DNA from: Candidatus Doudnabacteria bacterium
GTDB taxonomy: Bacteria > Patescibacteriota > Doudnabacteria > UBA920
NCBI GenBank assembly: GCA_963837465.1
Contig: CAWINB010000001.1
Span: forward strand, 220,981-284,980
DNA: 64,000 nucleotides
Direction of reading: 5' to 3'
Shown: piece after piece, positions 1 through 52,893 of the stretch
Position numbering within the stretch: the stretch's first letter is position 1
Layout: every line of letters begins with the position of its first letter
Translations under genes and position numbers: made by a program
Notes under the pieces: generated by a model
What the model was told of the DNA's origin: nothing
Seen by the model: the letters and a program-made list of their open reading frames with translations, nothing else
The model's database searches: none

Positions 1-1350
1 CGGTTTTTGCCACGTAATCAAATTCTCTAGTAAGTGATATGAATCACCATATTGGCGTGAATTATAAGGTGGATCAATATAAAGCACATCGCACTGAATC
101 TGCCGAATTAGTTGGTTCGCATCTTTGTTATATATTTCATTACTATGATTATTTCGGACATTGATATCCGGAGCAACTAATTTTAGCTCTTGTATGGTAT
201 CCAAAATTTTTCTGTATGCCTCAAAGTGACCAACGGTATTAGCTACCTTATCAACGGCGTAAAGCAAAGAGGTAAGTAGTATATTCTTTTCATTGTCATT
301 GATGTCCAGATGTTCAATTTCATCTCTTATTGCACCAATCTTAAGCGAATTAGCTTTGGTGAAAAATGTGCCGCCAAAGTTTTGGGAAATATAATTTTCT
401 TTGCTTGGATTCAACTGATTCAAGTAATCTATAAGATTGCTTATTTTTTCTCTATCGTATTCATCAGTTTTAAGCCAGCACTGTAGGCTCGTATAGCTAC
501 TGGTTAAAATATCGTTGGAAATAATTTTTGCATCTGGGCGGTTAAAATAATATCCCACCACTCCGGTGCCAGCGAAGATATCACAAAAGCTTTGGAAGTT
601 GCCGCATTTTTCTGACACGATGTCGCCAATGAAACCTAAAAGTTTAGATTTATTTCCTAAAAATCTTCTGCTTTGAATCTGTAACCATTGTTCTTTTTTT
701 TTGGACATTACAAAATTAGGTAAGGTTGTAATCGGCCTGCTAGTTACAAAGGTGTCTGCGCGTATAATCCCAGTAAGTTTGCCTCTAATTTCTAAATGCC
801 TAACAAAAATAGGTTTATAATTATTATTTGCCGGCTGAAGTCTGAAGTTACTCTTTTCTTTGTAAATTCTTTTTAAAGTCGCTTCGCCATTAATAACGGC
901 AACTCCAATTTCTCCATTTTCTACCATAGGTTGCTGATGAATTACAACTATATCACCGGTAGAAATTCCCGCGTCCTGCATACTTTGCCCTTCCACTCGT
1001 AAAGCAAAGTGATTGCCAAATGGAAGGGTTAATTGTTTGGGGACAGAAATAACTTCTGGAATCTCGGTTGCTTCAATTGGCTGTCCTGCGGCGATAATTC
1101 CTAAAAGAGGTATCTGTACAAGTTCCTGACTATCATTTTCGTTTAACTCAATTGAGCGCGCCAAATTATCTATCTTTTTAAGATAGTTTTTTTCAACTAA
1201 AGCGTTGATATGCTGATGTACTGTCGAAACAGCTGAGACTTTAAGACTTTTCTTAATTTCCTCAAGAGTAGGGGGTACGCCTTTACGTTGTATAGCAGTC
1301 CGAATGAAATTCAAGACCTGCGCTTGTCTCTTTGATAAAGGCTTTTTCAT
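1..1350 (-). CDS. LexA-like repressor (winged HTH + S24 peptidase) fused in frame to a Dam-like (D12 class) N6-adenine DNA methyltransferase. It is 3'-truncated by the window edge.
   Basis: Hand translation of the minus strand from the ATG at 1350-1348 has no stop down to position 1. Residues 1-210 read MKKPLSKRQAQVLNFIRTAIQRKGVPPTLEEI...IPLLGIIAAGQP...ALRVEGQSMQDAGISTGDIVVIH...ATLKRIYKEK. This matches the LexA HTH, the Ala-Gly cleavage region and the Ser/Lys catalytic dyad. The sequence then continues KKKEQWLQIQSRRFLGNKSKLLGF...CDIFAGTGVVGYYF...ISNDILTSSY...VLYIDPPYNSRQYGDSYH. These are the Dam family N-terminal G-x-K-xxLL motif, motif I FxGxG and motif IV DPPY. A stop codon (TAA) lies immediately upstream of the ATG. 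Confidence 0.6.
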   Translation of the reverse strand, partial: MKKPLSKRQAQVLNFIRTAIQRKGVPPTLEEIKKSLKVSAVSTVHQHINALVEKNYLKKIDNLARSIELNENDSQELVQIPLLGIIAAGQPIEATEIPEVISVPKQLTLPFGNHFALRVEGQSMQDAGISTGDIVVIHQQPMVENGEIGVAVINGEATLKRIYKEKSNFRLQPANNNYKPIFVRHLEIRGKLTGIIRADTFVTSRPITTLPNFVMSKKKEQWLQIQSRRFLGNKSKLLGFIGDIVSEKCGNFQSFCDIFAGTGVVGYYFNRPDAKIISNDILTSSYTSLQCWLKTDEYDREKISNLIDYLNQLNPSKENYISQNFGGTFFTKANSLKIGAIRDEIEHLDINDNEKNILLTSLLYAVDKVANTVGHFEAYRKILDTIQELKLVAPDINVRNNHSNEIYNKDANQLIRQIQCDVLYIDPPYNSRQYGDSYHLLENLITWQKP

Positions 1351-1390
1351 ATTTTTTTATTTTACTCAAATTTATACTGTTAATTTAATT

Positions 1391-1411
1391 ATACCGAAAA
1401 AATACCGAAAA
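1391..1411. promoter_or_regulatory. Tandem direct repeat ATACCGAAAA x2 with 11-bp register in the divergent promoter region between the LexA-methyltransferase gene and the recombinase gene. It is a candidate operator. On the minus strand the repeat lies next to a TATAAT box.
   Basis: ataccgaaaa at 1391-1400 and again at 1402-1411. The minus-strand reading is ttttcggtattttttcggTATAATtaaatt. Confidence 0.3.
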
Positions 1412-1628
1412 GATAAATGGCTTATCCACATGCTTATAGCCGGTTAGGAGAATTCCAATTTTTTTTGGGGGATTAGTTATCAACTTCCTCAACCTGGACT
1501 TCACTTAGCCGTTGCGTCATTCCTTGTAGTGTAAGCAACTAATAAGGAAAGGAGCAAAATGCAAACAATAACAACAAACCAGGCACTAGGACTGGCTAAC
1601 CAAATCGCCGCGCCCCCACAACAGGTAG

Positions 1629-2906
1629 GGTCTAGCGGCAAGCTATTGCCTGTATGCAAGAAAGAGCTCGGAGGACGACGAAAGGCAGGCGCTGAGCATC
1701 GATAGCCAAATTAAAGAGATGATGCTCATAGCAGACCGCGAACATCTGGTAATATCCGAGGTGCGCAAAGAAAGCCACTCAGCTAAAGATTCTGGCCAGA
1801 GGCCGGTGTACAACCAACTGCTCAAAGATGTTAGGAGCGGAATGTTCGCGGGCATCCTAACATGGTCGCCGGATCGTCTTAGTAGGAATGCCGGTGACTT
1901 AGGGGTGCTGGTGGACTTAATGGACCAGGGACTGCTTAAGGAAATCCGAACTCACGGCCAGCGATTCAGTAACTCACCGAACGAAAAGTTCCTACTGATG
2001 ATCTTATGTAGCCAAGCTAAACTGGAAAACGATAACAGAGGTATCAACGTAAAACGCGGACTTAAAAATAAAGCTGAGCTGGGAATTAGGCCGGGACTGG
2101 CCCCCTTGGGTTACTATAACGAACTAAGTCATGACAGAAATAAGGGTAAGATTGTTGTAGACCCAGTTAGAGCGCCAGCAGTAAAAGAAATGTTTGAGAG
2201 AGTGGCTTACAATGGCGACAGTGGCCGGGACATTCTAAACTGGCTAAGTAACGAAATCGCATTTACAACCAGAACCGGTAAACGAGTGGCGCTAAGTAAT
2301 GTGTACGCCATGCTCAGGAATAATTTTTATTACGGCATGTTTGAATACCCGTTCAAGAGTGGAAATTGGTACGAGGGAACACACGAGCCGCTAATTAATA
2401 AAGATTTGTTCGATAAAGTACAAGAGCAGTTACGAACTGCGCCTAAGTCTATGCCGGGAACCAAAGAGTTCGATTTTACTAAAATATTTACTTGCGGTGC
2501 CTGCGGTTCGGGAGTAACTGCCGAGGAAAAATTTAAAAACCTAAAAGATGGAACGGTAAGAAGATATATCTACTATCACTGTACTGGTGGGTCTGACCGG
2601 AGCTGTAACCAACTTTATATTAGGGAAGATGAAATTTTAAGCCAGCTGATGGATATAATAGACCGCTTAGATATAGACCAGCTCGGGATTAAAGACCGAG
2701 TTTACAAAGAACTATTTCGCTATCAAACATTAATAAAAAGCGTCTTAGGCCAGCCAGGTATGGCGGCCATTGAATTGCCGCAGATAGACACTAAAGCTTA
2801 CGCCAAGCACATACTTAAGGATGGGAGCAGGGATGAAAAACGAGAGCTGCTATCATGTTTAAAAACCAAACTATTGATAAAAGACAAAAAAGTATACGCA
2901 GAATAA
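1629..2906 (+). CDS. Large serine recombinase (resolvase catalytic domain + recombinase domain + zinc ribbon). The N-terminus is out of frame with the only upstream ATG that has an RBS.
   Basis: The frame after the stop at 1626 reads GLAASYCLYARKSSEDDERQALSIDSQ...ILTWSPDRLSRN... (catalytic Ser motif and DRLSR), then ...CGACGSGV...YYHCTGG (zinc ribbon). The ORF track starts at the ATG at 1719, which is internal to the catalytic domain. An ATG at 1559 follows a strong RBS (aaggaaaggag) but is in the +1 frame and encodes a 48-codon ORF that overlaps the catalytic-domain start. Confidence 0.7.
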   Translation, partial: GLAASYCLYARKSSEDDERQALSIDSQIKEMMLIADREHLVISEVRKESHSAKDSGQRPVYNQLLKDVRSGMFAGILTWSPDRLSRNAGDLGVLVDLMDQGLLKEIRTHGQRFSNSPNEKFLLMILCSQAKLENDNRGINVKRGLKNKAELGIRPGLAPLGYYNELSHDRNKGKIVVDPVRAPAVKEMFERVAYNGDSGRDILNWLSNEIAFTTRTGKRVALSNVYAMLRNNFYYGMFEYPFKSGNWYEGTHEPLINKDLFDKVQEQLRTAPKSMPGTKEFDFTKIFTCGACGSGVTAEEKFKNLKDGTVRRYIYYHCTGGSDRSCNQLYIREDEILSQLMDIIDRLDIDQLGIKDRVYKELFRYQTLIKSVLGQPGMAAIELPQIDTKAYAKHILKDGSRDEKRELLSCLKTKLLIKDKKVYAE

Positions 2907-2954
2907 AGTAGGACTCGAACCTAGGAAAAGATTACTTAAAGTAGTTTAGACAAA

Positions 2955-2994
2955 AAATAAGAGCATGGACGCAAAATCCATGCTCTTATTTTCT
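2955..2994 (+). terminator. Rho-independent terminator after the recombinase gene.
   Basis: Perfect 15-bp hairpin aaataagagcatgga / tccatgctcttattt with loop cgcaaaa, followed by T-rich ttct. Confidence 0.6.
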
Positions 2995-3048
2995 ATAGAT
3001 TCTAGACCCGTGATTCAGGGTTAGTAGGTCACCAGGAACCAGAATTTG

Positions 3049-3123
3049 TGGCTGGGGCGCCAGGGATCGAACCTGGGAATGCAGGCTTCAAAGGCCCGTG
3101 CCTTACCGCTTGGCTACGCCCCA
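3049..3123 (-). tRNA. tRNA-Gln (anticodon UUG) with encoded CCA.
   Basis: Reverse complement is UGGGGCGUAGCCAAGCGGUAAGGCACGGGCCUUUGAAGCCUGCAUUCCCAGGUUCGAUCCCUGGCGCCCCAGCCA. It has a 7-bp acceptor stem, U8, anticodon stem CGGGC/GCCUG, loop CUUUGAA giving anticodon UUG, T-arm CCAGG-UUCGAUC-CCUGG, discriminator G and CCA. Confidence 0.85.
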
Positions 3124-3269
3124 ATAATATAGATTACAATTAACAGCTAAAACTATTCGGCAACTAACAGACATTATAAAATAAAACCCCGAAAAAGAAA
3201 AGACAACCAGGAGTTTTGCCGGACGGCGCCTTTAAAAGGTTGAATATTAAGGCAAAAATTGGGGCCAGT

Positions 3270-4010
3270 TTAATTTTGGGGAACATTACCGCTTTGGCCC
3301 AAATCCCCGCCTTTTTGGCCCACGTCAATAACATGCTCTTTCTTCGCGCTAATCTGAAGCTGTAAAATATTTTTGTCCAAAGAAGCCGCTTCTTCCGCTT
3401 TACCACCGGCCTTTAGGCTGTCGCGCTGCTTTTTTAAAGCCGAGAGGGCGACGGTGACTTCGGCCCTGGCTTCTACAATAGCCCGCAGCCTGAGCTGCCC
3501 GTCGCGCGAAAGGGCAGTATTCAAACCTGCTGCCGGGGAAGCCGGGCTGCCGTTGGCTGCCTGGCCACGGGAATTTAAAGCACCGGGTACGGCCGCGGCT
3601 GAATCTTTGGCCGCGAGTTCATCAAGCTCGCTGAGCCTTTCCTGGGCAAATTTGGCCTGTAGCTTGGCTTTGGATTCCGCGGATACGGTTAAAGTTAACT
3701 CCACTTTTTCCTTGGCTCTTTTAATGGAATAAAGTGGCTGGCCCGGTAAAGCGGTATTGGAGGCAAAAGCCGTTCCTGCCAGCATGGACAATCCCAGGGC
3801 CACAGCCGCGAAATAACGGGTAAATTTTCCCCAGTTTTGGGCAAAACCTTTGGCGGCAGTTTGGGGAGATGATAATAACGAGCGGAAAATTTTTTCCTTA
3901 ATCAAAGCCTGTCTGTCCGGAGCCAAAGGTTTTACGCCACTGCTTAAAACGCCCAGCGACTGGATTTCTTTTTTAAACTTTTCGGCAATTTTTTGGTCAT
4001 TAAAAATCAT
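3270..4010 (-). CDS. Putative anti-sigma factor. It is a single-pass membrane protein encoded directly downstream of the ECF sigma factor.
   Basis: 246 aa with a central hydrophobic segment YFAAVALGLSMLAGTAFA. It is co-oriented with the sigma gene and starts 18 bp after it. Confidence 0.4.
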   Translation of the reverse strand: MIFNDQKIAEKFKKEIQSLGVLSSGVKPLAPDRQALIKEKIFRSLLSSPQTAAKGFAQNWGKFTRYFAAVALGLSMLAGTAFASNTALPGQPLYSIKRAKEKVELTLTVSAESKAKLQAKFAQERLSELDELAAKDSAAAVPGALNSRGQAANGSPASPAAGLNTALSRDGQLRLRAIVEARAEVTVALSALKKQRDSLKAGGKAEEAASLDKNILQLQISAKKEHVIDVGQKGGDLGQSGNVPQN

Positions 4011-4027
4011 ACGCCGTAAAAATAAAT

Positions 4028-4597
4028 TTACGCTATTGTACTGCCAAGCTTGGAAGTTTTGCCTGAACCGGATAATATATTCTTCATCTTTTTTAAGGCC
4101 CGATGCTGGATTAACCTTACAGCCAGATTACTTTTACCCAAAACCGCTGCTGTTTCCCGCACCGACAAATCCTGGATAAAACGCAGCTCCAGAACCTGGC
4201 GGTAAAGCGCGGGCAGCAGGGCAAAAGCCCGGATGGCAATTTCCATATCCGAATTTGTGGCAGCCTCCTGCTCCAGGGAAGTTTTGTCCGCCAAATCCAT
4301 ACTGTCTTTTATGGAAGTCGTAACGGGACCGCGATAGACCTTACGGAAGTGGTCGTTAACGCAATTGCCGGCAATTTTATAAATCCAGGCGGAAAAATTC
4401 AGGCCCTCCATGTTAACCCCGGCAAGCCCGCGGTAAGCTTTAATAAAAACTTCCTGCAGAACATCTTCGGCTTCCTGCTGGTTCTGGATTTTTATGCGGA
4501 TATACCTGAAAAGCCGCCCGGCAAATTGATCGTAAATTTGGCCAAAAGCTTCGGAATCTCCCTGTCTGGCTTTAATTACCAAGTCATCAATCCCCAT
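4028..4597 (-). CDS. ECF-type RNA polymerase sigma-70 factor.
   Basis: Region 2 reads ...FGQIYDQFAGRLFRYIRIKIQNQQEAEDVLQEVFIKAYRGL. Region 4 reads ...LELRFIQDLSVRETAAVLGKSNLAVRLIQHRALKKM. Confidence 0.8.
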   Translation of the reverse strand: MGIDDLVIKARQGDSEAFGQIYDQFAGRLFRYIRIKIQNQQEAEDVLQEVFIKAYRGLAGVNMEGLNFSAWIYKIAGNCVNDHFRKVYRGPVTTSIKDSMDLADKTSLEQEAATNSDMEIAIRAFALLPALYRQVLELRFIQDLSVRETAAVLGKSNLAVRLIQHRALKKMKNILSGSGKTSKLGSTIA

Positions 4598-4742
4598 AAA
4601 TTAAAACGCTGTTTTTAGCATTCTGTTTTACCCGTTCTGAAAATTTATCTGCCTTATTTAAAGCAAAGACGGACGGACGCTGCTATCATACATTAAAATA
4701 ATGATATAATGAAGAGGCTAACTCTGCTCAAAAATAAAAACC

Positions 4743-5123
4743 ATGGGGCCCGACGAAGAACTCGCGAAAAAATTCCAAAGCTACCAGGAAGTGGCAAAAG
4801 ATAATCCCAACGTTGACGTTGGGATGCTGATGCTTAACGCCCTGCAGACCCAGAAACAAAACTACGTTTCCACCAAAAAAAAGTGGTGGATTTATACTAT
4901 TTCCTCAAGCATTCCCATGTCGGGATTTTTATTCGCCATCTACTATTATTATTTTGGCGAGGAAGACGACTCGCGCCAAGTGGCCTGGATATCCATAGGT
5001 CTAACCTTATTTTCCACTTTTATGTACTGGGCTCTGGCCAAAGCCACCTTTTCCGGCACAGGAGCTTCCGTCCAGCAAATCCAGCAGATAAAACCGAGTG
5101 ACATTATGCAGCTGACACAGTAG
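4743..5123 (+). CDS. Hypothetical small membrane protein.
   Basis: 126 aa with two hydrophobic segments (WWIYTISSSIPMSGFLFAIYYYYF and VAWISIGLTLFSTFMYWAL). A -10-like gatataat lies upstream. Confidence 0.45.
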   Translation: MGPDEELAKKFQSYQEVAKDNPNVDVGMLMLNALQTQKQNYVSTKKKWWIYTISSSIPMSGFLFAIYYYYFGEEDDSRQVAWISIGLTLFSTFMYWALAKATFSGTGASVQQIQQIKPSDIMQLTQ

Positions 5124-5187
5124 ATCGTTGCGCGACCCGCGCGAGGGTTGCCCTTGAATCCCAAAGCATCGGCCCTGCATTTTTTGA

Positions 5188-6933
5188 TTACTTCCCCGCA
5201 ATCGGGCGCGTCGGCGGAATGCGCATATAGTTTAAAATAAACTGCGCGAATTGCCCCCAAACGGGAACGGCCGTGGTTTCCGCGAAAGCCGCGTCGCGGG
5301 GATGATCAACGCGGATAAGCATCAGGAACTGCGGGTTCTCCACCGGCGCGAAACCGATAAAAGACCCAATATTATCGTTTACCAAATACTTGCCGTCCGG
5401 ACCCGCCACCTGGGCAGTACCTGTTTTACCGGCCACATAGTATCCGGGCACGGCGGCCTCTTTGCCGTAGCCGTTTTCCACCACATCCACCAGCATGGCA
5501 TCCAGAGTGCTGGCGGTTTGCGGCGAAATTACCTGGGCCACCACATGCGGCGCGGTATTTTTTATTTTTCCGTCCGGAAAAATTTCCGACTGCACAATAT
5601 ACGGCCTCATCATTTTTCCGCCGTTGGCAAAAGCGGTGTAAGCTTCCAGCATTTGCATGGGCGTTACTGTAATACCCTGGCCAAAACTGGCCGTGTCGTA
5701 ATTTACCTGAATATTGTTGTCTCTTAGGCTGCTTAAATCCCCCACGGCCTCCGGCAATTCCACGCCCGTAGCCTGGCCAAAACCAAAAGCCTTGACGTAT
5801 TTTAAAAAGTCCGGGTTGCCCAGCTGATTTTCCGCGTAAAGGGCGCCGTCGTTGTAGGACCAATCCAAAACCTGGGTCATGGTGGTTAGGCCATGGGCTT
5901 TGTTGTCGGAATCGTGAATGTGAAAGCCGTCCACCGCGACATCGCCGGTATCAATATAAGTTGATGTGGGCGTAACTTTATTTTCATCCAAAGCCGCGGC
6001 CATGGTAATGGCCTTAAACACCGAACCCGGCTCGTAATTGCCGGTGACGGCCTCGCTGTTAAACAGTGACGGATCCGTAACCTGGTTATACTGGTTGGGA
6101 TTAAAATCCGGGTAGTTGGCCAGGGCCAAAATGGCTCCGGTTTTTGGGTTGGCCACAATAATACAGCCGCTGTCAGCGCCGTTTTTGGTTACCATGGTTT
6201 GCAGAACGTTTTCGGCCTGGAACTGGATAGTCTGGTCAATGGTTAAAATTAAATTGGCGCCGTCCTGGGCGGGCTGTTCGTAATCCTGAACTCCGAAGAC
6301 CAAAGAACCGGCGGAGCCCTGCTGAGTGGTCAGTTGGCCGGAGGTGCCGGCCAAATCGTTTTGGAAATAACGTTCCAGGCCGTACAATCCGACTTTTTGC
6401 GTCCCATTGGCCCCGTAGCCCACAAACCCCACAGTCTGGCTGAGTAAATTATTTTGCGGATAAAACCTGGTGTCCTCGGAATCAAAATAAATACCGGGCA
6501 GGTTCAGGGCTTTGATTCCGGCCTGTTCGCTGTCGCTGAGTTGTTTTTTTATAACTACGTATTTTTTGCCTGTTTCCGTAATTTTGCCTAAAACATCCCT
6601 GGGGTCCAGGCTCAAAACCGAGGCCAGACTTTCGGCCGTTAAATTGGGATTTAAAATATCCGGCGGCACCGCGTAAACCAGGTAGCTTTTTAAATTGGCG
6701 GCCAGCGGGATGGCGCCGAAGGATGATTTATCCACCAAATCTATTTCACCGCGGCTGGGCAGGAGCTTTTGGTAAATACTGTGCTGGGCTTCGGCTTCCT
6801 GCCTGATTTGCGCGCCGTGAATGACCTGAAGGCTGAACAGCCGCCAGGCAATGACCAGAAAAAACAACAATAAAAAAACAGTCAACAGGCTGCTTCGGGA
6901 GTTAAAGTTGGTTTTTTCTTTTCTGGCGGCCAT
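5188..6933 (-). CDS. ftsI: Penicillin-binding protein 2 / FtsI (peptidoglycan transpeptidase).
   Basis: N-terminal TM segment, and transpeptidase motifs in ...SVFKAITMAAALDE... and ...KTGTAQ.... It occupies the expected position in the dcw cluster after ftsL. Confidence 0.85.
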   Translation of the reverse strand: MAARKEKTNFNSRSSLLTVFLLLFFLVIAWRLFSLQVIHGAQIRQEAEAQHSIYQKLLPSRGEIDLVDKSSFGAIPLAANLKSYLVYAVPPDILNPNLTAESLASVLSLDPRDVLGKITETGKKYVVIKKQLSDSEQAGIKALNLPGIYFDSEDTRFYPQNNLLSQTVGFVGYGANGTQKVGLYGLERYFQNDLAGTSGQLTTQQGSAGSLVFGVQDYEQPAQDGANLILTIDQTIQFQAENVLQTMVTKNGADSGCIIVANPKTGAILALANYPDFNPNQYNQVTDPSLFNSEAVTGNYEPGSVFKAITMAAALDENKVTPTSTYIDTGDVAVDGFHIHDSDNKAHGLTTMTQVLDWSYNDGALYAENQLGNPDFLKYVKAFGFGQATGVELPEAVGDLSSLRDNNIQVNYDTASFGQGITVTPMQMLEAYTAFANGGKMMRPYIVQSEIFPDGKIKNTAPHVVAQVISPQTASTLDAMLVDVVENGYGKEAAVPGYYVAGKTGTAQVAGPDGKYLVNDNIGSFIGFAPVENPQFLMLIRVDHPRDAAFAETTAVPVWGQFAQFILNYMRIPPTRPIAGK

Positions 6934-7539: not shown

Positions 7540-8733
7540 TTACTTCTTTTCCATGGCTCTTAGCTTGGCCGCCTTTGAACGCGGGTTTTGTTTTAATTCT
7601 TCCGGCGAAGCGGTAATTATTTTTTTGGTTAAAATTTTGCCCCGCGGATTTTTGCCGCAAATACACCGCGGGAAATCCGGCGGACAAACACAGCCTTTGG
7701 CCATCCCCGCAAAAAATTGCTTTACCATTCTGTCTTCCAAAGAGTGGAAACTCACCACCACCAGCCGGCCGCCCGGGGCCAACAAATCAAAAGCTTTGGG
7801 TAAAAAACCTGAAAGGTTTTCTAGTTCATGATTTACTTCAATCCTTAACGCCTGGAAGATTCTTCGGGCGGAGTCGTCGGCTTTGTGCTTAACCGGCTTA
7901 GGCAGCGCGTCCTGGATTATCCGGTAAAGATCGTTTGTGTGTTTGATTTCTACCCCCTTACCCCTAGCCCCTATAACCTTGCCAGCTATTTGCCTGCTGA
8001 ATTTTTCTTCCCCATATTCGTAAAAAATTTTCTCCAGCCTTTTTTGGTCGTAATTATTTAAAATAAATTTGGCATCTTCGGGCTGTGACTGGTCAAACCG
8101 CATATCCAGCGGCTGGTTGGTTTGAAAGCTGATTCCCCGGTGCTCCAGCTCGTAAGACGAAAGTCCCAAATCCGCCACAATTCCATCCGGCGCCGGAAAA
8201 TTATGGTTCTTTATAATATGGTCTATTTTGGAAAAATTCCCTTGAACAAGCGAAATATTATAATATAATGATTCAAGGTGGGTTGGGGCTGGTGCCGAGC
8301 GAATCCTTGACAGTTTCGTCTCGCGGGTTCGATCCCCGTCCGGTCCGCCACTTAAAACCCGAAGGTTTGACAAACTCTGAACGTCTGATATACTAGAATT
8401 AACTGTCAAGGTTTCGCTCTGAAGCGCCGGTTTGAGGCCGGAAACCGTCCTTAATTGGGCGGTTTTTTCGTTACTCCAAGAGCTTTTAAAATTCTCAATA
8501 GCATCCTTATCTAAATCTATAGATAGTAATTTCCCTGTCTCCCCAATTTCTTTTAATATCGCCTTGCTGTATCCTCCGCCCCCCAGCGTGGCGTCAACAA
8601 TATTCTTGCCGGGCTTGGGCGCAAGATAAGAAACAACCTCATTAAGTAAAACCGGAGTGTGTTCATAATTATTGACCATGATTGAACAAAATTGACGATG
8701 ATTGACAAGATTGCCACAGCGAATCGTGTTCAA
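7540..8733 (-). CDS. rsmH: 16S rRNA m4C1402 methyltransferase RsmH (MraW) carrying an in-frame insertion of about 65 aa.
   Basis: N-terminus HTPVLLNEVVSYLAPKPGKNIVDATLGGGGYSKAIL and C-terminal ...GGRLVVVSFHSLEDRMVK are canonical RsmH. The protein is 397 aa against about 310 typical. The extra segment (SSWSNEKTAQLRTVSG...GGPDGDRTRETKLSRIRSAPAPTHLESL...) is encoded by about 8245-8440 and is low-complexity. Confidence 0.8.
   Translation of the reverse strand: MNTIRCGNLVNHRQFCSIMVNNYEHTPVLLNEVVSYLAPKPGKNIVDATLGGGGYSKAILKEIGETGKLLSIDLDKDAIENFKSSWSNEKTAQLRTVSGLKPALQSETLTVNSSISDVQSLSNLRVLSGGPDGDRTRETKLSRIRSAPAPTHLESLYYNISLVQGNFSKIDHIIKNHNFPAPDGIVADLGLSSYELEHRGISFQTNQPLDMRFDQSQPEDAKFILNNYDQKRLEKIFYEYGEEKFSRQIAGKVIGARGKGVEIKHTNDLYRIIQDALPKPVKHKADDSARRIFQALRIEVNHELENLSGFLPKAFDLLAPGGRLVVVSFHSLEDRMVKQFFAGMAKGCVCPPDFPRCICGKNPRGKILTKKIITASPEELKQNPRSKAAKLRAMEKK
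8242..8269 (+). promoter_or_regulatory. Near-consensus sigma70-type promoter (TTGAAC-16-TATAAT) antisense to rsmH. It faces the tRNA-like element.
   Basis: ttgaac at 8242-8247 and tataat at 8264-8269 with a 16-nt spacer. Confidence 0.4.
8286..8350 (+). ncRNA. tRNA-like module (acceptor stem + T-arm + CCA; no canonical D or anticodon arms) embedded antisense inside the rsmH insertion.
   Basis: 5' GGGCUGG pairs with CCGGUCC (two G-U pairs). U follows at the U8 position. The T-arm is GCGGG-UUCGAUC-CCCGU. The discriminator is G and the 3' end is CCA at 8348-8350. Only 28 nt separate the acceptor strand and the T-arm. A 19-nt segment at 8297-8315 is complementary to 8401-8419, with one mismatch. 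Confidence 0.4.
8440..8470 (+). terminator. Intrinsic terminator closing the antisense unit inside rsmH.
   Basis: Stem accgucc / gggcggu (7 bp including one G-U) with loop uuaauug, followed by TTTTTT. Confidence 0.4.
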
Positions 8734-50334: not shown

Positions 50335-52893
50335 CTAAAGCCCCCTCTCAACATCCGGCAGCGCCTCGGCCATGTTTTCGGCTACTTGGCCGGCTTCCAG
50401 GATTTCTTCTTCCACTTCGGCGCGCGGACGACCGTGTTTGAGGCGGGATAACTGGCGAATGGCCTGCGCTTGCTCCTCATTGCCATTTCTTAACAGCGGG
50501 TAGGTGGCAATATTAAACGGCTTGCTGGCCGTGCCGTTTATCATTAATTTTAAGTAGGCGTTGTAGCGGTCCACATTGACCAAATCAAACTCGTTAAAAG
50601 TCGGCTTAAATTCCTTGGCCATAACCTCGCTGTCCTCGGAACCTATCCTGAAACAAACCATACTGCCGGCGTTGCCGAACACGGCGTCGCGAAGGTCTTT
50701 GGATCCCGCTCCCTGGGCGCCGGCCTGGGTTTCCAGCTGTCCCAAATATTGGTGGGCGATAATTAAATTCAGGCGGTATTTTCTGGCTTCCGAAAGGATG
50801 GATGAAAAAGCGTCCGTGATAAAGTTTTGGAACTCATCCACATAAAGATAAAAATCCGGACGTTTATCTTCTTTAACGTCGGCCCGGGCCAGCGCGGCCA
50901 TCTGCAATTTTGAAACGATAATCAAGCCCAAAAGCTTGGCGTTGATTTCGCCAACTTTGCCCTTGGCTAGGTTTATAAGCAAAATTTTGCGGCCGTCCAT
51001 AACCTCGCGGAAATTAAAAGCGGATTTTGGCTGGCCGACTATATTGCGCATCATAGCGTTTTCCACAAACCGCCCGACTTTGGAAATTAAGTAGCCAAGC
51101 ATTTCCGACTTATGGAAGTCCGACGTCTTGGCCATTTCCTTTTCCCAAAACAGCCGCACGACAGGATCTTTAAGTTTGCTGACTTTGTACTTTTGAAATT
51201 CCGTGTCCGTAAAAATTCTTGGGATATCTGTAATAGTTCCTGGATGTTCTTCGTCCGCCATCAGCGTAAGCATGGCGTTTCTCATGTTGTGCTCAAACAT
51301 CGGGCCAAGCATAGCCGGGTCGGTAACCAGTTTGTAAAAAATCTGGATCATTTCCTGCACGGCGAAATCTTTTTGTTCTTCGCTGTCCACCTGCAGCATG
51401 TTTAATCCCATGGGCCGCTCCATATCAAACGGCTCAAACAAAATTACGTCCTCGGCGCGCTCCTTGGGTATGTGCGGCAAAATATCTTCTATAAAATCCC
51501 CGTGCGGGTCTATAACGCAAAGCCCTTCGCCGTTTTTAATATCCTGTACCGACATATACTTCATAATTTCCGTCTTGCCGCTGCCGGTGCGGCCGAGAAT
51601 ATACATATGCCTTCTGCGGTCATCGCGCTGCATAAAAACTTTTGTCTCCAGTCCGCGGTAAATATTGCGGCCCAAAAGCACGCCTTCCTTGGGCAAGTTA
51701 ACCGGCGGCGGCGCTTTTTTGGATATCAGCCATTTAATGTTGGGCGTTTCTATGTAAGGCGTGGGCAGGTGCCAAAGGCTGGCCAGTTCCTCTGTGTTTA
51801 AAATGCTCTGGCTGCCGTTGTCGCGAAAAACCCGAAAAATATAATCTTTTAAGATATCATTTTTGTCCCTTTTTTTTGTATGCAAACCGTTAAACGGCGG
51901 CATATTGTATTGCAAAAAAGCGGCCAGCAAATTGCGCATATGGCTATTGGCGTTGCCGGGAATGGATGATGATGTAATAAGGCGGATGTTGGTTTTATAG
52001 CCCGGCCGGCTGGCTTTTTCTTCCAGCTTTTTTACAATTTCCTGCTGCATCGGCGTTAGCTGGATGGGCGAGGCGTAGCCGGATAAATCTTTGTGGGTAT
52101 GAGAACCCTGTTGCTGCTGGCCGCTGCCGCCAATGCCGGCCAGGCCTTTGCCCACGCCGCGCATAAAACCTATAAGCAAACGGTAAACGTGCCCCCGCTC
52201 CACCATTTCCGGATTTTTTCCCTGCTGGATTTCCAAAGCCATATGCCGCGGCCGCCCCTGCCACAATGTGCCGGCCGGACTTAATATAAACTGGATGGCC
52301 GCGCCTTCGTTCTCCTGAAGTTTGCTCATGGCATTGGTCAGGGCGCTGAGCGGGTCGGACTCCATGGTTTTGTAAGTGCGGTAAGGATAAACGTACTGCT
52401 TGTTCAGCCTGAGTTCTTCCACTTCCACTTTGCCGTCTTTTTGGAAAGGATTATAGCCGGGCACCTGCTCAATAAAGGCGTGCGGATACTGGGCCTGGAT
52501 TTGTTTTTCCACCAGCTCTTGCAGATGCTTGGGACAGTTAACATAAAAAGAAATTTTTTTCTCCGTGCAGGCGATTTCAAAACTGAAATAATCCTTGCCC
52601 AAAAGCCAGCCCTTGTTGTGGCCGGACTCCGAAAGCGTGGTAAACAATTGTTCGGCTATGGCAATCAGCGCTTTTTTTTCTTCCTCGCTTTTAGGCCGGT
52701 CATCCGTCTTATCCGGCGACCCCTCCTTAGGCATCTGGATTTCCAAAAACACCCAGTCCTGGATCCTGGGCACCACATGCTTTGTATGATATATATGCCG
52801 CTTATAATAATAAAAAAAGACAGCCGCAAAAACGACTATCAAAACCAATAAAACCAAAACCGCAATCTGAATTGAGTTTATTTCAAGGGGCAT
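50335..52893 (-). CDS. Membrane-anchored AAA ATPase of the VirD4/TraG/TraD (type IV coupling protein-like) / DUF87 type.
   Basis: N-terminal TM segment. Walker A YILGRTGSGKTEIMK...VIDPHGDF. Walker B-like FYLYVDEFQNF. 852 aa. Confidence 0.55.
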   Translation of the reverse strand: MPLEINSIQIAVLVLLVLIVVFAAVFFYYYKRHIYHTKHVVPRIQDWVFLEIQMPKEGSPDKTDDRPKSEEEKKALIAIAEQLFTTLSESGHNKGWLLGKDYFSFEIACTEKKISFYVNCPKHLQELVEKQIQAQYPHAFIEQVPGYNPFQKDGKVEVEELRLNKQYVYPYRTYKTMESDPLSALTNAMSKLQENEGAAIQFILSPAGTLWQGRPRHMALEIQQGKNPEMVERGHVYRLLIGFMRGVGKGLAGIGGSGQQQQGSHTHKDLSGYASPIQLTPMQQEIVKKLEEKASRPGYKTNIRLITSSSIPGNANSHMRNLLAAFLQYNMPPFNGLHTKKRDKNDILKDYIFRVFRDNGSQSILNTEELASLWHLPTPYIETPNIKWLISKKAPPPVNLPKEGVLLGRNIYRGLETKVFMQRDDRRRHMYILGRTGSGKTEIMKYMSVQDIKNGEGLCVIDPHGDFIEDILPHIPKERAEDVILFEPFDMERPMGLNMLQVDSEEQKDFAVQEMIQIFYKLVTDPAMLGPMFEHNMRNAMLTLMADEEHPGTITDIPRIFTDTEFQKYKVSKLKDPVVRLFWEKEMAKTSDFHKSEMLGYLISKVGRFVENAMMRNIVGQPKSAFNFREVMDGRKILLINLAKGKVGEINAKLLGLIIVSKLQMAALARADVKEDKRPDFYLYVDEFQNFITDAFSSILSEARKYRLNLIIAHQYLGQLETQAGAQGAGSKDLRDAVFGNAGSMVCFRIGSEDSEVMAKEFKPTFNEFDLVNVDRYNAYLKLMINGTASKPFNIATYPLLRNGNEEQAQAIRQLSRLKHGRPRAEVEEEILEAGQVAENMAEALPDVERGL

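Follow-up and report, generated by a model that had tools for sequence, protein, structure and literature searches.

A full-length LexA repressor fused in frame to a D12-class adenine methyltransferase at the head of a predicted restriction-modification operon in Candidatus Doudnabacteria

The stretch analysed here comprises 64,000 nucleotides of contig CAWINB010000001.1 (assembly GCA_963837465.1, positions 220,981 to 284,980) from a Candidatus Doudnabacteria bacterium and is called the window below. A minus-strand gene at its left edge encodes a LexA repressor joined to a D12-class N6-adenine DNA methyltransferase, the latter referred to as M1. Translation of the minus strand showed 450 stop-free codons from the ATG at 1350 to window position 1, where the gene leaves the window. 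The full-length protein of 555 amino acids (aa) was read from the near-identical contig L001 (Logan assembly, run ERR10755945), a separate assembly of the same locus that possibly shares reads with the window. Over the open reading frame (ORF) of the fusion, the window and P0001/L001 are 99.8% identical, differ at one residue and use the same reading frame. The features of the locus are collected in Table 1.

The N-terminal part of the protein, residues 3-198, was assigned to LexA by profile searches, and the LexA equivalog model TIGR00498 (NCBIfam) was exceeded as well, with 178.7 bits against a cutoff of 110.95. Residues 3-197 align to residues 2-197 of E. coli LexA. In the predicted model, the N-domain consists of three helices, the recognition helix being SAVSTVHQHINAL, and the modelled S24 domain matches structures of the LexA C-domain with template modelling (TM) scores of 0.77-0.85 in Foldseek. 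The residues required for self-cleavage are intact. Ala-Gly, Ser and Lys are invariant in 84 of 84 aligned sequences (37 orthologues and 47 more distant fusions) that have diverged to ~30% overall identity, which argues that cleavage is under selection. The preliminary description of this DNA had proposed that cleavage at Ala-Gly would part the DNA-binding domain from the dimerisation and methyltransferase part, and the invariance of the site and of the Ser/Lys dyad supports this proposal.

The C-terminal part carries the methyltransferase. PF02086 (MethyltransfD12) matches residues 230-449 of the window ORF with 118.5 bits (cutoff 22), and in the full-length protein the domain spans residues 230-555. 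Motif I is followed by motif IV, which is the alpha-class order. The enzyme had been called Dam-like; the term holds at the level of the Pfam class and fails for the Dam subfamily, whose model TIGR00571 was not reached (19.5 bits vs a cutoff of 114.85). A PDB sequence search with the methyltransferase half returned no match at E ≤ 0.001, Dam included, and E. coli Dam was only a weak fold match to the predicted model (Foldseek TM ~0.5). The three profiles named beforehand, PF01726, PF00717 and PF02086, all scored above their gathering thresholds on the respective halves, and the motifs quoted for both halves (the cleavage site, GQSMQD, TLKRI, FAGTG and DPPY) were all found where they had been placed.

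The two halves are joined in a single frame by a linker with a homopolymer, seen as a T9 run on the forward strand and as A9 on the coding strand, where it encodes Lys-Lys-Lys. It had been claimed that the frame passes through this run unbroken, and L001 agrees. Among 37 aligned sequences, the Lys run and an in-frame Met218 are restricted to the three closest, and the remaining sequences have LPLF(M/V)YPQKNEQ in their place. The fusion is independent of both the homopolymer and the internal start codon, because most orthologues lack the two. Across the same alignment the linker sequence varies and its frame is always kept. In the AlphaFold model (mean predicted local distance difference test score, pLDDT, of 75), the two LexA domains, N and C, are distinct from a methyltransferase fold that stands apart, and the linker is disordered at 199-220 (pLDDT ~30). 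A protein database search yielded more than 80 clusters that are 58-90% identical, 551-566 aa long and equipped with all three Pfam domains; they belong mostly to Patescibacteria, and their entries originate from JGI, ENA, NCBI and Logan. Read-through of the fusion was seen at 17 genomic loci. The one-frame fusion of a full-length LexA to a D12-class N6-adenine methyltransferase is thus confirmed as genuine and conserved. The alternative, that an indel in the A9 run, or loss of a stop codon, artificially merged adjacent but separate lexA and methyltransferase genes, is essentially excluded: a homopolymer does lie in the linker, a 1-nt indel relative to L001 in the neighbouring recombinase gene indicates that single-base errors or variants occur in this window, and split lexA and M1 arrangements are known from other phyla, but the separately assembled L001 keeps the frame, as do the clusters and loci above, which come from many samples and assemblers and mostly have neither homopolymer nor internal start.

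Table 1. Features of the LexA-M1 locus in the window.
Feature	Position	Strand	Remarks
LexA-M1 fusion gene	1..1350	minus	codons 1-450 of 555; 3' end beyond window start
D12-class N6-adenine DNA methyltransferase domain (aa 230 onward)	1..663	minus	PF02086
Motif IV DPPY	64-75	minus	D426PPY429 invariant in 37-sequence alignment
Motif I FAGTG	562-576	minus	F259xG261xG263 invariant in 37-sequence alignment
Linker (aa 199-227)	670..756	minus	holds A9 run 694-702 and invariant Pro211
Peptidase S24 catalytic and dimerisation domain (aa 81-192)	775..1110	minus	PF00717, 97.4 bits
Lys160 in TLKRI	871-873	minus	S24 dyad residue
Ser123 in GQSMQD	982-984	minus	S24 dyad residue
Ala88-Gly89 autocleavage site, within IPLLGIIAAGQP	1084..1089	minus	invariant in alignments
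LexA winged-helix DNA-binding domain (aa 3-65)	1156..1344	minus	PF01726, 53.4 bits vs cutoff 23.7
Predicted -10 hexamer TATAAT	1388..1393	minus	overlapped by second repeat of the box
Predicted operator: tandem LexA box TTTTCGGTAT-T-TTTTCGGTAT	1391..1411	minus	11-bp period
DnaA-box-like 9-mer TTATCCACA	1422..1430	plus	just upstream of the LexA box
Large serine recombinase, divergent	1559..2906	plus	Pfam Resolvase, Recombinase, Zn_ribbon_recom; frameshifted near 1633

The genes that follow the fusion lie beyond the window edge and were read from L001. There the gene of an AlwI-family restriction endonuclease, R (609 aa, 3398-5227; PF09491, 273.6 bits), lies 2 nt behind the fusion gene (1728-3395); the best solved relative of R is N.BspD6I (E = 3e-28). 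Another 6 nt on comes a second methyltransferase, M2, of the N6_N4_Mtase family (255 aa, 5234-6001; 222.6 bits). The order fusion-R-M2 is repeated in L002, L004, L005, L007, which lies in the complete genome of candidate division WWE3 RAAC2 (CP006914.1), and L083-L087, with a more divergent endonuclease in L005 and L083-L087. Operons of the type M1-R-M2 with an unfused M1 of ~335 aa are widespread and occur in Campylobacterales, Clostridia, Treponema, archaea and others; their D12 M1 is 48-64% identical to the M1 of the fusion, their endonuclease and M2 are homologous and the gene order is the same. Split forms exist too: a 203-aa lexA and M1-R-M2 share a 14-nt overlap in L033, M1-R is preceded by a lexA-like gene in L014, and both loci have tandem repeats of their own. 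With a co-oriented AlwI-family endonuclease adjacent to it and two methyltransferases (D12 M1 and N6_N4 M2) present, the fusion is, as judged from gene content and order, the first methyltransferase of a Type IIS-like restriction-modification (R-M) system. Since it heads an M1-R-M2 operon, the role of a free-standing regulator or enzyme was set aside; the protein had been described as a damage-gated methyltransferase or a methyltransferase-tethered SOS repressor, and for the same reason "R-M controller" is the better fit. Two further analyses had little to add. The 5-mers GAGTC, GGATC and GGATG were not under-represented in the host part of the window, a test that is possibly uninformative, and a scan of L001 for sigma-70 promoters and terminators gave counts at or under the shuffle expectation, which are uninformative on operon structure.

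A related arrangement was observed for the same D12 M1, which in other Patescibacteria and some other taxa is fused N-terminally to a complete RadC (UPF0758_N and RadC JAB domain) in proteins of ~600 aa (L008-L012, L016, L018, L019, L021, L026, L028 and L029; e.g., L010 5302-7110). The AlwI-family endonuclease and M2 follow in at least 10 of these 12 loci. M1 has therefore been fused to two different modules associated with DNA repair.

The fusion region has a GC content of 36%, compared with 45-52% beyond 3 kb. This island adjoins the serine recombinase gene and is inserted beside an extracytoplasmic function (ECF) sigma factor and the mraZ-rsmH-ftsI cluster. The RsmH of the host has its nearest matches among proteins named Candidatus Doudnabacteria. 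The gene sits on a low-GC mobile island and moves horizontally. The viral contigs searched held no LexA fusion and only distant methyltransferase matches, so there is no sign of a phage origin. The divergent large serine recombinase of the preliminary description is present; what had been missed is that its gene is frameshifted in the window by a 1-nt insertion outside any homopolymer, the copy in L001 being intact (448 aa). The frameshift could be an error of assembly, or a real pseudogene mutation by which the island has become fixed where it is.

Several side observations concern the island and its surroundings. A block of ~45 nt (TGACGCA...GAGTCCAG...AGTTGATAACT) at ~1475-1519, which separates the start of the recombinase gene from the LexA box, is kept in the upstream regions of the three loci with the divergent recombinase (the window, L003 and L005). 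It may act as the promoter of the recombinase or as the site at which the enzyme recombines. Downstream of M2, L001 encodes a 256-aa protein without a Pfam match (6031-6801). An ORF of 256 aa also lies downstream of the operon in L002 (16131-16901), followed by a serine recombinase, and has no tblastn match to the L001 protein; both could be further island cargo. Elsewhere in the window, an 852-aa protein (50335-52893, minus strand) weakly matches the VirD4/TraG type IV coupling protein and HerA-like ATPase domains. RsmH (MraW; 7540-8733, minus strand) has 397 aa, compared with ~310-330 aa in most homologues, many of which align to only ~60% of it.

The promoter of the fusion gene reads, on the coding strand from 1411 to 1388, TTTTCGGTAT-T-TTTTCGGTATAAT, that is, two 10-nt repeats with a period of 11 bp. 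The ATACCGAAAA direct repeat reported earlier from the shared promoter region is accordingly real, and it is conserved. TTTTCG-N5-TTTTCGGTATA was found with 0-1 mismatches at all eight fusion loci from species-representative genomes, and the core TTTTCG-N5-TTTTCGGTAT in the same place at all nine metagenome fusion loci; at these 17 loci the box sits 48-65 nt before the start codon. None of 65 loci with an unfused or RadC-fused M1 has the box, the best match there having at least five mismatches. In an alignment of the upstream 100 nt of 16 sequences, the invariant columns are the box and the start codon, plus one isolated T. The -10 hexamer is kept as TATA(A/C)T in nearly all aligned fusion loci (L085 has TATGAT). 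The exact box occurs once in the window, and looser matches are at chance level. We predict from this pattern that the tandem box is the operator bound by the LexA part of the fusion.

Two other promoter elements were noticed. Most fusion promoters, and also promoters of the lineage's stand-alone lexA genes, have a DnaA-box-like 9-mer (TTATCCACA or TTATTCACA), in one orientation or the other, 0-25 nt upstream of the tandem box (the window, L004, L048, L083, L085, L090, L166, L172 and L175). The window contains four exact copies, compared with ~0.5 expected for a random 9-mer on both strands. The element could be a DnaA site, a promoter part or a further operator element. In the fusion group defined at 65% identity, the 5' leader is conserved (ATATAGCAnTT ... 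AAAACATCAATCAA) over the 40-60 nt before the start codon in L002, L007, L048, L083-L090 and L111, with no obvious Shine-Dalgarno sequence; the leader in the window differs.

The same type of box was found at genes for LexA alone. Three unfused LexA proteins of the lineage are 45-46% identical to the LexA part of the fusion and have the recognition-helix motif STVHEH or STIHQH. All three genes (L172, L174 and L175) are preceded by a tandem box of the type TTTCGG-N5-TTTCGG, one repeat in L174 reading TTTACGG. In 1.56 Mb of collected loci, TT[TA]CG-N6-TT[TA]CG occurs 31 times, of which 23 are directly upstream of a lexA or LexA-fusion gene. The negative control P0153, a LexA with a Firmicutes-like gene neighbourhood, has inverted repeats of the type GAAC...GTTC in its promoter and no tandem box. 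A direct-repeat motif has been described as the recognition sequence of Patescibacteria LexA (PMC7739468). As the box is common to the stand-alone lexA genes, the fusion appears to have kept the ancestral autoregulated lexA promoter. Boxes of a repair regulon were not found beyond chance in the window, and in the 1.56 Mb the box occurs essentially only before lexA-type genes. A second lexA was not found in the window, which covers ~9% of a genome of ~0.7 Mb.

The LexA part was also searched against 1.84 billion cluster representatives (50% identity). Among the 40 best matches, 35 are at least 270 aa long with an N-terminal LexA, i.e., longer than a stand-alone LexA. A Pfam run on the 47 nearest LexA relatives of at least 270 aa found LexA_DNA_bind and Peptidase_S24 in all 47 and a clear DNA methyltransferase domain in at least 27. 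The methyltransferase families, whose counts overlap, were N6_N4_Mtase (27 of the 47 proteins), Eco57I (7), N6_Mtase (5), MethyltransfD12 (4), MmeI_Mtase (4), C-5 DNA_methylase (3) and TaqI_C (2). Judging by these domain matches, no fewer than four unrelated DNA methyltransferase families have been fused to the nearest relatives of this LexA. Such a range of partners in bacteria of the candidate phyla radiation (CPR) suggests strong selection. The architecture is therefore not unique to the protein of the window, which is one case in a broad set of LexA-methyltransferase fusions. Among the named members, which belong to Candidatus Nealsonbacteria and "Patescibacteria group", the annotation reads "transcriptional repressor LexA", "LexA repressor" or "hypothetical protein". 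Fusion sequences are already public under automatic names, among them also "Modification methylase StsI".

Three gene contexts were seen for the fusions to other families. In the first, a LexA-Eco57I-type methyltransferase is convergent with an AccI-family endonuclease (Pfam RE_AccI) and a small HTH_3 protein. In the second, a LexA-N6_N4 methyltransferase is convergent with a 212-aa gene without a Pfam match, presumed to encode the endonuclease, and an HTH_3 protein. In the third, a LexA-gamma methyltransferase lies in a defence-rich neighbourhood. In the two convergent systems the LexA module would control the methyltransferase specifically. Likewise, the promoters of gamma- and beta-class fusions have tandem repeats with an 11-bp period between or over -35 and -10 (CTTTCGA twice, ATGTTCTATA twice, or CTTTCGG twice with a degenerate third repeat), and in this small sample the repeat sequence varies along with the recognition helix.

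The fusion, its intact catalytic residues, the operon context and a conserved box that occurs only with LexA are direct observations. Building on them, we think it probable, though far from certain, that M1 of this Type IIS-like R-M operon represses its own expression and that RecA-stimulated self-cleavage relieves this repression. The LexA winged helix, dimerised via the S24 domain, would bind the TTTTCG-N5-TTTTCGGTAT box over its own -10 element, so that the methyltransferase would hold down transcription of its own gene, and probably of the entire operon, more strongly the more of it is present. DNA damage, which may arise when the cell restricts its own under-methylated sites, during repair synthesis or when phage DNA is cut, would produce filaments of RecA on single-stranded DNA. 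These would stimulate self-cleavage at Ala88-Gly89 by Ser123 and Lys160 and thereby release the DNA-binding domain. Repression would be lifted and more methyltransferase and operon product would be made, the S24-methyltransferase part remaining intact. The main argument that cleavage matters is the strict conservation of its chemistry across many methyltransferase families.

The purpose of such a circuit is less certain, and two options were considered. Methylation may rise in response to cuts in the cell's own DNA or following repair synthesis, an option that is clearest where R is separately controlled by a helix-turn-helix (HTH) protein of the C type. Alternatively, the whole system may be boosted while phage DNA is degraded, which fits the present operon better, because R looks co-transcribed with M1.

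Several points weigh against the autorepression and cleavage scheme. DNA binding, repression and cleavage are all things that we infer, as are RecA dependence and physiological purpose. As R is apparently co-transcribed, derepression would raise R too, which weakens the logic that more methylation stops self-cutting. Since the box is the same as that of stand-alone lexA genes, a host LexA, if present, could control the fusion promoter, and the fusion could in turn act on host SOS genes. The recA gene is not in the window (~9% of the genome, as above). In L006, finally, the AlwI-type R and M2 are absent, and an Eco57I-type methyltransferase and a BsuBI/PstI-type endonuclease follow the fusion.

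The serious rival holds that the fusion is the cell's SOS repressor, possibly its only LexA, with global damage regulation as its primary role and the methyltransferase as a passenger or as an enzyme delivered to SOS boxes. The equivalog score, an operator identical in type to the tandem box of the lineage's stand-alone lexA genes, the direct repeat recognised by Patescibacteria LexA (PMC7739468) and the 35 of 40 best LexA-part cluster representatives that exceed the length of a stand-alone LexA all favour it. We nevertheless regard it as unlikely, as the gene lies in a tightly packed R-M operon on a horizontally moving, low-GC island beside a recombinase, a second box beyond chance is absent from the window, the box stands essentially only before lexA-type genes in the 1.56 Mb of loci, and, as no fewer than four unrelated families are its fusion partners, LexA seems to be linked to methyltransferases in general.

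It is improbable that the chief task of the LexA module is to recruit the methyltransferase to RecA filaments or to make it a dimer, with transcription control as a secondary matter. Under this model the enzyme would preferentially methylate DNA that has just been synthesised or recombined, in a Type II analogue of restriction alleviation, which is established for Type I systems after DNA damage. That a physical fusion, not a separate gene, was selected repeatedly speaks for the model, and in solved structures the LexA C-domain binds RecA filaments (8trg, 8gms); however, the DNA-binding domain and the operator, which the model does not need, are the most conserved features. We give very little credence to an S24 domain that is unresponsive to RecA, in which case the LexA module would be a constitutive autorepressor or dimeriser, functionally like the HTH methyltransferases of the SsoII type. 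Autorepression alone would explain the promoter architecture, and nothing is known of RecA-LexA coupling in CPR bacteria, but the invariance of Ala-Gly, Ser and Lys in 84 sequences at ~30% identity is hard to explain without selection for cleavage.

Autorepression by an R-M methyltransferase is in itself an established control mode, in which an N-terminal HTH domain represses the enzyme's own promoter (PMC3874152). Like M.SsoII, M.Ecl18kI, M.EcoRII and M.ScrFIA (PMC3874152), the fusion has an N-terminal DNA-binding domain on an R-M methyltransferase and a predicted operator over the methyltransferase's own promoter, so that the methyltransferase level would feed back on transcription. Unlike in these enzymes, the DNA-binding module is an entire LexA with the S24 autoprotease and an intact cleavage site, and repression should therefore be removable by a DNA-damage signal. 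Moreover, the operator of the fusion is a tandem direct repeat, and the partners of LexA include N6-adenine-type methyltransferases of several classes and not only C5 enzymes. The fusion is not a C5 enzyme and lacks the short SsoII-like HTH, and it is thus a functional analogue of the SsoII type and not a member.

With E. coli LexA (PDB 1jhh, 3jso) the LexA part shares end-to-end homology at ~34% identity, the same Ala-Gly site and the Ser/Lys dyad. An autoregulated promoter, predicted for the fusion, and a tandem box like that of the lineage's stand-alone lexA genes are further likenesses to an SOS LexA; the differences are the 330-aa C-terminal methyltransferase, the location inside a mobile R-M operon and a regulon that was not detected beyond the fusion's own promoter in the sequence available. 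The C proteins C.PvuII, C.AhdI and C.Esp1396I are, as is proposed for the LexA part of the fusion, dedicated transcription factors that set R-M expression, and the split lexA-M1-R-M2 operon of L033 resembles an operon that begins with a C gene. They are, however, small Xre-type HTH proteins with palindromic C-boxes and without a signal-sensing protease, whereas the fusion is of the LexA type and its box is a direct repeat. Some LexA-methyltransferase fusions coexist with a separate small HTH_3 (Xre-type) protein beside the putative R, in the position of a C protein. The unfused M1-R-M2 operons of the AlwI/BspD6I/PleI family have homologous genes in the same order and differ in having neither the LexA module nor the tandem box.

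Cleavable repressors of the LexA/CI type are known from mobile elements, as with lambda CI and SetR of SXT, and damage-responsive regulators of defence systems include CapH-CapP and BrxR/CapW. In these systems, as would be the case here, DNA damage releases repressed mobile or defence genes through RecA-stimulated or protease-mediated inactivation of the repressor. The repressor there is a separate protein; in the fusion it is covalently part of the protective enzyme and would control a classical R-M operon.

Full-text literature searches returned no description of the LexA-methyltransferase architecture, as the preliminary description had supposed; Sanchez-Osuna et al. 2017, which lay outside their scope, may define the box or note fused LexA homologues. 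The architecture is absent from a 2013 review of R-M regulation, a 2026 review of prokaryotic methyltransferases and a 2026 preprint on CPR methyltransferases, and a 2025 review of R-M biology does not mention LexA. Autoregulating methyltransferases themselves are known, and the novelty would lie in an autoregulating R-M methyltransferase that has a cleavable SOS repressor as its DNA-binding module.

In an R-M system a toxic nuclease has to be kept in balance with the methyltransferase that protects against it, and CPR bacteria depend heavily on R-M for defence. To our knowledge, none of the known R-M control devices (C proteins, HTH-bearing methyltransferases, promoter methylation and antisense RNA) senses DNA damage. 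A methyltransferase with a cleavable LexA would tie the SOS signal directly to R-M expression and would constitute a simple, testable circuit for avoiding autoimmunity or boosting defence. We put forward only tentatively the wider idea that LexA-methyltransferase fusions may form a widespread, undescribed class of R-M control in CPR/Patescibacteria, in which the methyltransferase would carry the SOS sensor, RecA-triggered cleavage would derepress it and possibly relocate it, and Type II systems would gain a built-in alarm against self-restriction, comparable to restriction alleviation. As the fusions use the canonical box of the lineage, the only SOS repressor in some tiny genomes may even come from a mobile R-M cassette. 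A candidate LexA box for this lineage is a further outcome of the analysis. Many CPR proteins annotated as "LexA" are R-M methyltransferases, which affects the reconstruction of SOS regulons in CPR bacteria.

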